DNA of 64,000 bases from NCBI GenBank assembly GCA_963808625.1, contig CAWEHK010000024.1, forward strand, positions 1-64,000, given 5' to 3'. A program made the translations under genes and the position numbers. The notes beneath the pieces are model-generated. The model did not search any database. It saw only the letters and a program-made list of their open reading frames with translations, and had not been told where the DNA came from. Each line of letters begins with the position of its first letter. The stretch's first letter is position 1. This document shows, piece by piece, positions 2,857-5,860 of the stretch. Source of the stretch: an uncultured delta proteobacterium. GTDB taxonomy: Bacteria; Desulfobacterota; Syntrophobacteria; Syntrophobacterales; Syntrophobacteraceae.

Positions 2857-3098
2857 GCTATCCTTCTTACAGACATTCATCTAATTTCACCATATCATCC
2901 GACCCTAGCCCTTAACGGGGGAGGATTCCCCGAGGGGTTCTCCTGTCACCATTTGAACCCGATTCGGTACATTGTCCGCAGGGCTTCGCACCCCGTCATC
3001 AGCGCGACGGTAGCACGCCTGCGTAGGGTCCGGCAGGAACATGCCGGGTACTCCAGGTAACTACCTGAGTACACTCAACTATGCGACATCGTGTCGCA

Positions 3099-3209
3099 AG
3101 CCAACACTGAGATGAGCAGCGGCGCCGAAGCACCAGGGCGCACGAAAAGTACGCAACCGACTATCACGCGCCCACGGATTGCGCCGTCTGCTTGAATCTT
3201 TGGTTAGGA
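3099..3209 (-). other. attC-like recombination site (top strand is the minus strand)
   Basis: Minus strand reads TCCTAAC-caaag-ATTCAAGCAGACGGCGC...GCGCCGCTGCTCAT-ctcagt-GTTGGCT. This gives R''/L''/L'/R' boxes in an imperfect 111 bp palindrome with extrahelical bases. Confidence 0.75.
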
Positions 3210-3384: not shown

Positions 3385-3413
3385 TTGCAAAGCGACTGCT
3401 GATTGTTTATAAA
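3385..3413 (+). promoter_or_regulatory. Sigma70-type promoter upstream of the NYN gene leader RNA
   Basis: TTGCAA (3385-3390), 17 bp spacer, TATAAA (3408-3413). Confidence 0.65.
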
Positions 3414-3419
3414 TGCCAT

Positions 3420-3498
3420 GAAAGCTTGCTGAGATTGTAGCCCCCCCCAGGGTTTCGACCCTGGGCCGCGGAGCCCCTTCGGGGGCTCCTGCTTTTTT
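3420..3498 (+). ncRNA. Putative ~75-80 nt structured leader or antitoxin RNA with two UUCG hairpins, the second an intrinsic terminator
   Basis: CCCAGGGT-TTCG-ACCCTGGG (3446-3465), then GGAGCCCC-TTCG-GGGGCTCC followed by T6 (3493-3498), ending 12 nt before the ATG. Confidence 0.55.
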
Positions 3499-3510
3499 GT
3501 GGGAAAGGTG

Positions 3511-4137
3511 ATGAGAACAGCCATTTACGTCGATGGGTTCAATCTTTATTACAGAGCCATACGAGGCACACCGCACAAATGGTTGGACCTGAAGACGCTC
3601 TTCGGCAAGGTCCTCAAGGCCTCGCATGTGATCACCAGCATAAACTATTTCACCGCCCTGGTTTCCTCTACCCCTCAAGATCCTGACAAAGCGCTGAGGC
3701 AAAAGACTTATCTCCGTGCACTGCGGGCTCACATTCCTGAGATAGCCATCCACTACGGACACTTCTTGAGCCGCGAAGTTAGAGCACCTCTGGCCCAACC
3801 CGCACAAGGCAGGACCTTCGAAACGGTGATCAAGACAGAGGAGAAAGGCTCCGATGTCAACCTTGCGGTGCATCTGCTGAATGACGCATGGCTTGATGCT
3901 TACGACTGCGCCGTGGTGGTCTCCAATGACAGTGACCTGGCTGAAGCTATGCGATTGGTCAGATTTCATCATCCATCCAAGATCATTGGTTTAATCTCGC
4001 CGGAAGAAGGGCGAACATCCAAGCAGCTCAAGATTCATGCGAATTTCGTAAGACATATCCGGAAAAGCGCCCTCGCCGCATCACTGCTTCCATCCCCAAT
4101 TCTTGGAACTTCAATCCACAAGCCCGCCGCTTGGTAG
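3511..4137 (+). CDS. NYN domain (LabA/DUF88, PIN-like fold) ribonuclease
   Basis: YVDGFNLYY, EEKGSDVNLA and VVVSNDSDL acidic active-site motifs; RBS GGAAAGG. Confidence 0.9.
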   Translation: MRTAIYVDGFNLYYRAIRGTPHKWLDLKTLFGKVLKASHVITSINYFTALVSSTPQDPDKALRQKTYLRALRAHIPEIAIHYGHFLSREVRAPLAQPAQGRTFETVIKTEEKGSDVNLAVHLLNDAWLDAYDCAVVVSNDSDLAEAMRLVRFHHPSKIIGLISPEEGRTSKQLKIHANFVRHIRKSALAASLLPSPILGTSIHKPAAW

Positions 4138-4155: not shown

Positions 4156-4266
4156 TTCTAAAAGCTAAAATCTAATCGACCCGCGCGGACCGGTATGAAC
4201 TTCCAGCCTGCACTACGAACTCTGTGAGAACAAGTGGTTACGGGTCCGCTTGAGCGAAAGTTAGGT
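4156..4266 (-). other. Degenerate attC-like site
   Basis: Minus strand: ACCTAAC (contains the cassette stop codon)-tttcg-CTCAAGCGGACCCG...CGGGTCGATTAG...TTTAGAA. The R' GTT appears mutated to TTT. Confidence 0.55.
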
Positions 4267-4761
4267 CCTTCCAACAAAAGGTTCTCGACGGTATTCTGTT
4301 GTGAATTGTATTGCTCTAAGACCTGGGAACTGTTCAGGAACCTGTTTTTTGATCATCCGAAAACCCGAGAAGTGATCGACAGTCTGTCGGAGAAGATCGG
4401 AGACGTGCAACACCTTTCCTCCCCCTAAGGTTTGACATCCACTCTTGGGAGAGAAGACTAAGAGAGCAATTTGCTCGATCGATTCGTCTCCGCTCAGCAG
4501 ACCCGCAAAGAGTCCTGGAATGTATGTAATTCCAGCACGGAATTTCTTTTGAAACCTTTTTTCCCGTTCCTCCCATTTCGTGGCGTCCATGGATGCTTCG
4601 ATATGCACCAGATGCCTCGTCTCAGGGTGGAACCCTACAACATCCAGTTCACACTCGTGGCCACCAGCCAGTCTTTTCCCGACCAGGACATTTCGTCGAA
4701 TGAAATAGCCTTTGTATTCGTACCATTCTGCTGCCAGTTCTTCCAAGAAATTCATTGACAT
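4261..4761 (-). CDS. PD-(D/E)XK restriction-endonuclease-like protein (gene cassette)
   Basis: FLEELAAEWYEYKGY..ECELDVVGF..LVHIEAS pattern; RBS AGGAG; the stop codon lies inside the attC R'' box. Confidence 0.65.
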   Translation of the reverse strand: MSMNFLEELAAEWYEYKGYFIRRNVLVGKRLAGGHECELDVVGFHPETRHLVHIEASMDATKWEEREKRFQKKFRAGITYIPGLFAGLLSGDESIEQIALLVFSPKSGCQTLGGGKVLHVSDLLRQTVDHFSGFRMIKKQVPEQFPGLRAIQFTTEYRREPFVGRT

Positions 4762-4995: not shown

Positions 4996-5860
4996 ATGGT
5001 CATGAAAGACTGGTATGAGAACTTGGTTAAGACCCTTCAACTGAATGGCAAAGGCGAGCGCACTCAGCAATCCTATACCCGTGCGGTGCGAATGCTCACC
5101 GAATTCTACGGCAAAACCCCCGATCTCATCAGCGAGGAGGAACTTCAAGAGTATTTCCTCCACCGCAGGAACGTCAACAAATGGTCACCCAATACCATGC
5201 AGATCTGCTATTGTGGCGTCCGCTTCTTCTTTGAGAACGTCCTCAAGCGCAACTGGCATATCCTGGGCATCCTGCGAGCGCAAAATGAACGACGATTGCC
5301 GGCAGTGCTCAGCGTCGAAGAGGTCCGAAGCCTCCTTGCTCACGTAAGGACTCCTCAAAACTACGCTTTCCTGACTACGGTTTATTCCTGCGGCCTCAGG
5401 CTGCAGGAAGGGTTGCATCTGGAAGTCTCAGATATCGACAGTGACCGCTGTTGATGATTCAGTGCACCGGGGCAAGGGCGCCAAGGATCGCTATGTTCCT
5501 CTGCCTCATGCCACCCTTGGTCTTTTGCGCCGCTATTGGGTTACTCATCGAAACGCCCATCTCCTGTTCCCGGCACTTGGCCGCAACGGGAAGGGAGCAA
5601 AAGAGGGCATGACACCCATGGCAAAGAGCATTGTTCAGGGTGCCTTTCGCAAGGCCAAGTCTGAGGCCGGTATCCGCAAAAAGAGTGTTTCCGTCCATAC
5701 CTTCCGGCATTCGTATGCCACCCACCTCCTCGAAGCCGGTGTCAACTTGCGAGTCATCCAAAGATACATGGGCCACACCCAGCTTGAGACGACCATGGTT
5801 TACACTCATGTCCTGAGAGAAATGGGAGTGCAGAGGATAAAAAGCCCTTTGACATTCTGA
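4996..5860 (+). CDS. Tyrosine recombinase/integrase (frameshift near 5450)
   Basis: SAM-like N-terminal domain, RLPAVLSVEEV, YSCGLRLQE (R), GKGAKDR (K), HTFRHSYATHLLEAG (H-x-x-R), MGH..TTMVYTHV (H, Y). The IntI-specific insertion is absent. Confidence 0.9.

Follow-up and report, generated by a model that had tools for sequence, protein, structure and literature searches.

Type III toxin-antitoxin loci have been defined by their layout of tandem RNA repeats, a terminator and a toxin gene (excerpt of PMC5086642). Systems of this type (ToxIN, AbiQ, CptIN, TenpIN) share with the locus reported here a short RNA with an intrinsic terminator and a predicted endoribonuclease gene downstream, and with the wider family of that locus the tandem RNA repeats found in some members and the location on plasmids, prophages and integrons; mimicry of a type III antitoxin by a phage RNA is represented by the pseudo-ToxI of PhiTE (same excerpt). 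The closest functional model is AbiF, where a structured upstream RNA acts on an RNase-type toxin: RCd22 binds AbiF directly and acts in cis and in trans, whereas AbiF differs from the proteins studied here in being linked to Cas13 ancestors and in having a different RNA motif (bioRxiv 2025.04.15.648962, in part).

The protein family itself has been described as HEC-09, a single-gene candidate with a MARF1-like NYN fold and conserved aspartates, from a set of families selected for being embedded within Hma defence systems (Payne et al., bioRxiv 2024.01.29.577857, main text). The clone of one HEC-09 included about 150 bp of preceding sequence and an IPTG-inducible promoter; in that text this HEC-09 gave no protection against any coliphage tested and is not among the candidates with toxicity noted, and the terms 'ncRNA' and 'non-coding' do not occur. 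The LabA/DUF88 NYN proteins (PF01936, 2qip, MARF1 NYN) share the core fold and the acidic active site, and the available part of PMC5499597 lists their function as unknown and mentions no RNA partner. The sequence-only reading of this DNA was aware of no leader-RNA control described for LabA/DUF88 NYN proteins, and no RNA partner of bacterial NYN proteins was found in the literature searched, which covered few subscription papers and, for Weinberg 2017 and the HEC study, the main text. The word 'NYN' is likewise absent from the accessible text of the Minerva preprint and of the main article of Weinberg 2017 (PMC5737381).

The comparison presented here makes it probable that the locus encodes a type III-like toxin-antitoxin pair, in which an NYN toxin would be countered by a trans-acting RNA antitoxin that phages mimic.

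The NYN locus in the window

The window, i.e., the whole 64-kb stretch of DNA that was analysed, contains the following features in the region of interest.

2908..3048 (context 2908-3098), minus strand: 5' fragment of a group II intron, directly past the left attC-like site, context only (Rfam RF02012, 78.6 bits)
3099..3209, minus strand: attC-like site closing the cassette, intact, with core and inverse core (folding z -2.3)
3385..3413, plus strand: candidate sigma-70 promoter TTGCAA-17-TATAAA, with the -35 at 3385-3390 and an imperfect -10 at 3408-3413
3436..3499, plus strand: conserved small RNA, candidate antitoxin, made of a single-stranded C-rich head, P1, P2 and a U tail
3441-3448, plus strand: C8 run, read from the sequence
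3446..3465, plus strand: hairpin P1, 8 bp with a UUCG loop, from sequence and folding
3468..3498, plus strand: hairpin P2 with T6, forming the 3' half of the RNA and its intrinsic terminator, terminator-like in the scan
3511..4137, plus strand: NYN-domain predicted ribonuclease of the HEC-09 family, 208 aa, candidate toxin, from profiles and model
4170..4266, minus strand: attC-like site of the neighbouring cassette, degenerate, from the sequence (folding z -0.4)
4261-4749, minus strand: ORF of the neighbouring cassette, with no Pfam or NCBIfam match
4996-5860, plus strand: frameshifted tyrosine recombinase, under the integron-integrase cut-off

The C8 run, the two perfect UUCG-capped hairpins and the T6 placed 12 nt before the ATG were all found where the sequence-only reading had put them. 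The core of P2 spans 3470-3489 (8 bp, UUCG loop) and is extended by two basal G-C pairs and a bulged U at 3490, T6 occupies 3493-3498, and the gap to the ATG at 3511 is 12 nt. The leader folds with a z of -2.4, with one of 200 shuffles equally good. The promoter had been called good, which did not hold: its -10 lacks the final T, and the promoter scanner did not report 3385..3413. The same -35 and spacing are kept in a relative with 80% identity (L157), which has TTGCAA-17-TATAGA at the same position. The distance from the end of the -10 to the RNA is about 22 nt in the window versus 4-5 nt in most relatives. The window's own promoter is weak.

The attC-like sites were identified by the attC box layout. 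Both lie on the minus strand, and the NYN gene therefore runs opposite to the array, as had been proposed; of the two flanking sites also claimed, the left one is intact and the right one is degenerate. Both marks of an integron cassette are present, namely the flanking attC sites, with the right one in this degenerate state, and an IntI in the genome, where two matches above the TIGR02249 cut-off lie on other contigs. The recombinase in the window was ruled out as IntI by its score. In the upstream region of L157, too, an attC-like site is interrupted by a group II intron 5' end, similar to that of the window. By eye, the ORF at 4261-4749 resembles a PD-(D/E)XK-type nuclease, and so does an ORF beside an orphan copy of the RNA (L242).

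The protein matches PF01936 (E 2.9e-10; 41.3 bits against a cut-off of 24.2) and, over residues 2-208, PADLOC HEC-09 (E 1.7e-43, 146.6 bits), while sequence searches of NCBIfam and PDB gave no match. Its AlphaFold2 model has a pLDDT of 96.5, and the best folds found by Foldseek are 2qip (E 3.5e-8) and the NYN domain of MARF1; the fold-search matches listed are NYN structures, and ToxN is absent among them. The acidic motifs had been described as intact, and D8, D115, D140 and D142 are indeed conserved at 99-100% among 169 relatives, where basic and aromatic residues (R63, K108, K112, R181, K204, W24, W208) are conserved too. By profile and fold, the ORF is an NYN nuclease of the HEC-09 family with predicted activity. 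The AlphaFold2 model differs from LabA/DUF88 by a long beta-hairpin (residues 84-112), and the family by a conserved KPxxW tail. The family is large: among 8,000 scored candidates 7,907 are members, and clustering at 50% identity gives 5,962 clusters. Some members (L291 and the plasmid matches H83, H89, H93 and H102) carry the annotation 6-hydroxy-3-succinoylpyridine hydroxylase (HspA); this conflicts with the nuclease fold and seems to have been propagated between records.

A conserved two-hairpin RNA linked to the NYN gene

A total of 236 loci from relatives were fetched, and covariation was evaluated on a seed of 40 leaders, picked for clean hairpins and aligned with MAFFT blind to structure. 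The RNA has a median length of 66 nt and consists of an A-Y-C-C-C head, P1, P2 with a bulged U, and a U tail. In the 40-leader alignment 95.6% of 750 cells are paired, against 37-53% in controls with slid partners, and double changes occur in 18 of 19 pairs; none of 500 shuffles was as high. For P1, both sides have changed in all nine model pairs. Pairing was 95.0% in a model-fitted alignment of 101 matches. The basal GC/GC columns of P2 are conserved at 86-95%, and the U tail (at least five T within 8 nt) follows P2 in 113 of 138 cases. Two nested hairpins suffice for the covariation observed. The comparison of homologues that the sequence-only reading had proposed as its check thus found leader hairpins that, from these alignments, are maintained in many phyla by compensatory changes, and not the lack of conservation that it had named as refutation.

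These observations bear on the view that the RNA is a generic promoter-terminator unit hitch-hiking with a mobile NYN gene, with convergent copies explained by termination or antisense interference and orphan copies as deletion scars. P2 is terminator-like, and generic terminators score 23-35 bits with the models used here; however, P1 and the head are dispensable for termination and yet covary and keep a constant length across relatives. This view is very unlikely, also in the light of the genomic distribution given below.

The window leader had no match in Rfam 15 at E<=1, and nine related loci gave only tRNA, RNAI and sub-threshold matches. BjrC68 (RF02353) resembles the family RNA in its two hairpins and U tail; it did not match the window and matched a single phage copy weakly over the full length, at 26 bits against a cut-off of 39. 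It was rejected as the same RNA, since 151 genomes held only one true BjrC68 match and NYN genes are absent from the 1.5 kb around it; the likeness stems from a common terminator shape.

The RNA model R1, whose seed included the window, scores the window RNA at 72.5 bits. This is the sole R1 match in the window and among 150 candidates scored across the genome, which places the motif above chance. After removal of duplicates and of loci short of upstream sequence, R1 was run on 208 loci and the window; one frameshifted locus (L233) was scored by hand. A match lies beside 178 of the 186 NYN loci with at least 40% identity (138 of 146 outside the seed): 165 are upstream in the sense direction, with the terminator between RNA and gene, 11 are convergent past the stop codon and two are divergent. 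The eight loci lacking a match comprise five with a second RNA subtype, one with a two-hairpin variant recognised by eye (L036) and two broken genes, so that none of the 186 has an intact gene without the RNA or a variant leader. Promoters are enriched as well: a sigma-70 match of at least 9 of 12 positions directly precedes the RNA in 88 of the 164 sense copies, where shuffling gives a mean of 7, and this puts the start of the family RNA immediately ahead of the conserved A in its head.

The RNA tends to remain where the gene decays. Of 16 short or broken NYN genes, some of which may reflect assembly errors, 14 retain it, and in 920 kb of NYN flanks the only four non-adjacent R1 matches all precede decayed NYN starts, which is not what a hitch-hiking terminator would show. 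Tandem duplications of promoter, RNA and NYN gene, in which the extra NYN is decayed and the RNAs are kept, were seen at L118:2144-3624, L144:3673-3738 and L083:5704-5758. Among related Delftia contigs some carry the promoter-RNA-NYN module (L006:1330-2140) and others lack all of it, the difference being a block of about 800 bp; for a Delftia relative, the 23 RNA-seq runs listed all consist of assembled contigs, and the four examined are flat in depth and look like DNA.

The near-obligate linkage could also be read as that of a cofactor or sensor RNA, forming with NYN an active or primed particle that cuts a specific target, with the phage copies as dominant-negative sponges. The conserved basic and aromatic residues of the protein and the clade-specific RNA heads agree with this. 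Nonetheless, no variable guide-like segment is seen, the variable part of the RNA being the paired distal P2; the RNA outlives the protein more often than expected of a cofactor; and an intact activating RNA would bring little gain to a phage. A cofactor role is, for these reasons, quite unlikely.

Below 40% identity, R1 matched none of 23 loci at E<=0.01 and the second model, R2, none of 22. Most of these loci have a two-hairpin leader according to a simple script, the exceptions being L041, L052, L059 and L072. A clade at 27-34% identity on gut-type viral contigs (L042-L069) carries a distinct two-hairpin leader whose loop has six bases and which neither R1 nor R2 matches. Plasmid-borne NYN genes at 30-33% identity (L294, L295, L296, L297, L299, L300), among them a form widespread on IncN plasmids, are preceded, about 230 nt upstream, by longer structured leaders, some with two repeated units, that are closed by a terminator. 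Very distant paralogues (L283, L284, L285) have a promoter, a structured leader and a U tail about 120 nt upstream, and L284 and L285 have a different conserved RNA in common.

RNA copies on the opposite strand, in repeats and in phages

The 13 opposite-strand copies, found also in Actinomycetota and Chloroflexota, retain the head, P1, P2 and the U tail, and their RNAs terminate at or slightly past the NYN stop codon. The motif is thus independent of orientation. In all ten convergent copies that were scored the best promoter site ends 2-6 nt before the RNA, with only three reaching 9 of 12 positions. Given these copies and the promoter-like sites of the convergent ones, the RNA is not merely a leader. 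As to several independent origins of the convergent layout, the FastTree tree needs five changes, but a single clade is not rejected (p-AU 0.43), and the arrangement may be a single event.

Repeated forms also occur. Small mobilisable plasmids of E. coli and Klebsiella (loci L288, L292, L293 and L301) carry four tandem P1 repeats of about 33 nt, a terminator and the NYN gene, and two RNA units are present in L001/L003, L154 and L287, whereas the window and most loci have a single unit.

The leaders of ribonuclease genes such as rne and rnc are known to be targets of autoregulation by their own enzyme, and a cis-acting leader of this kind, whose hairpins NYN would recognise or cut, tuning termination or mRNA decay with the short RNA as a by-product, would fit the direct upstream sense position in 165 of 186 loci and the frequent U tail of P2. 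It does not account for full-featured copies on the opposite strand, for the tandem repeats or for the NYN-free phage copies of several subtypes. Sequestration of the ribosome-binding site by the C-rich head is unsupported, given that the head pairs no better with the ribosome-binding region of its own gene than with swapped ones (-4.3 versus -4.4 kcal/mol). We consider purely cis-acting control unlikely; cis control can, by analogy, be compatible with an RNA antitoxin, as for AbiF and RCd22 (bioRxiv 2025.04.15.648962, in part).

Copies of the RNA away from any NYN gene were sought in genomes and viruses. R1 matched 13 times in 151 genomes from the phylum of the window, with seven of the matches adjoining NYN; the other six are three strong orphans in one genome, one match by an assembly gap and two weak ones. 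The genome with the strong orphans (G081, 99% complete, no NYN match) has promoter and RNA at C57:20761-20826, C131:2821-2886 and C17:20381-20446. The match at L269 was rejected as a chance pattern match, and those at L259 and L260 are probably terminator noise.

Searches of viral contigs with three patterns gave 12, 1 and 16 loci, with an intact NYN gene near only two, both already known, and 22 virus records searched in full for NYN yielded one remnant of 20 residues. Seven of the viral loci belong to related phages, in which the RNA lies mostly upstream of terminase genes. A scan for the phage P2 found 46 loci, and R1 gave 41 matches in the 45 that were searched. In the 45 viral loci, R2, which was built only from 12 NYN-adjacent RNAs of subtype B, gave 13 matches of 49-56 bits. 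Both subtypes occur together in four loci (L304, L337, L339, L347), where P2 is shared and the heads differ. No NYN gene was found in any of the 39 phage records carrying the RNA, nine of which are at least 90% complete. Most phage loci form one related group, with at least one member, a complete one, being temperate. A BLASTN search of cultured phages with the RNA returned 45 matches, all of them partial and each short of 80% coverage.

NYN remnants lie near two viral loci (L245, L267); some orphan RNAs can therefore arise by NYN deletion, which fits a hitch-hiking unit. The phage P2 also resembles common alphaproteobacterial terminators. In 151 alphaproteobacterial genomes, with only about 33 candidates scored per genome, generic terminators reached 23-35 bits and two probable orphans 38 and 47 bits. 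R2 matches above 60 bits in these genomes number three, one of them a seed member, and all abut NYN, which again argues against a generic unit.

Several phage loci have further features. L268:2473-3348 (minus strand), seen also in L314, is a non-coding cluster with three model matches and one copy with P2 only, and genes for tRNA-Lys(UUU) and tRNA-Arg(UCU) lie between its RNA copies; it looks like an RNA-based counter-defence island. In L302-L347, more recurring heads or hairpins outside both models are found 5' of the shared P2 (L308, L312, L316, L318, L341), and these unmatched heads may mimic the RNAs of other NYN clades or of other systems. Orphan RNAs also lie in a phage head-gene region 3' of the scaffold gene (L248:1498-1561) and between portal and minor head genes (L237:1498-1568).

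Taken as comparative evidence, the opposite-strand copies, the repeats, the RNA outliving its gene and the NYN-free phage copies favour a trans-acting RNA antitoxin.

Candidate mechanism and significance

For a trans-acting antitoxin paired with an NYN toxin, we infer expression, binding, toxicity, activation and defence as follows. The promoter would drive a short RNA in abundance, of about 66 nt in family members and up to about 80 nt in the window, that stops at the P2 terminator, with rarer read-through giving the mRNA of the NYN ribonuclease. The RNA would bind the nuclease directly, probably through contacts of the C-rich head, of P1 and of the junction between P1 and P2, thereby keeping it inactive. 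Loss of transcription, e.g., by phage takeover, or loss of the element would deplete the RNA and free the nuclease, which would then cut cellular RNA, leading to abortive infection, maintenance of the element or both. NYN-free phage copies of several RNA subtypes would act as decoys in the manner of the PhiTE pseudo-ToxI. The proposal that the NYN RNase is neutralised or regulated by its own leader RNA is in this way supported on comparative grounds. Speaking against the mechanism are the lack of phage protection in the one published test of HEC-09, the single RNA unit of most loci and the NYN remnants near some phage copies.

The system differs from type III loci in the fold of its toxin, which is NYN (PIN-like) and not ToxN, and for this reason falls outside ToxIN, CptIN and TenpIN. 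Its RNA differs as well, being modelled as two hairpins without a pseudoknot, mostly present as a single unit, with the terminator stem conserved within the motif and able to lie on the opposite strand. By analogy, it probably works like these systems. AbiF has yet another fold, HEPN. A broader reading is put forward tentatively, at slightly less than even confidence: a widespread and hitherto undescribed RNA-antitoxin defence family built on an NYN (PIN-like) nuclease, with clade-specific RNAs and phage decoy arrays directed against several subtypes. The arrays would, in that case, be modular, with one shared P2 and swapped P1 heads, silencing several subtypes at once.

Given that small E. 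coli plasmids carry the four-repeat form of the RNA, the system is directly testable. The published HEC-09 construct probably contained the RNA, and the proposed pairing, if true, could explain the inactivity of HEC-09 when assayed with its upstream region. It would also assign a function and a regulator to a large, still uncharacterised group of NYN proteins in bacteria, and the PIN-like nuclease would join the folds controlled by RNA antitoxins. The phage arrays would then represent natural, multi-specific RNA counter-defence.
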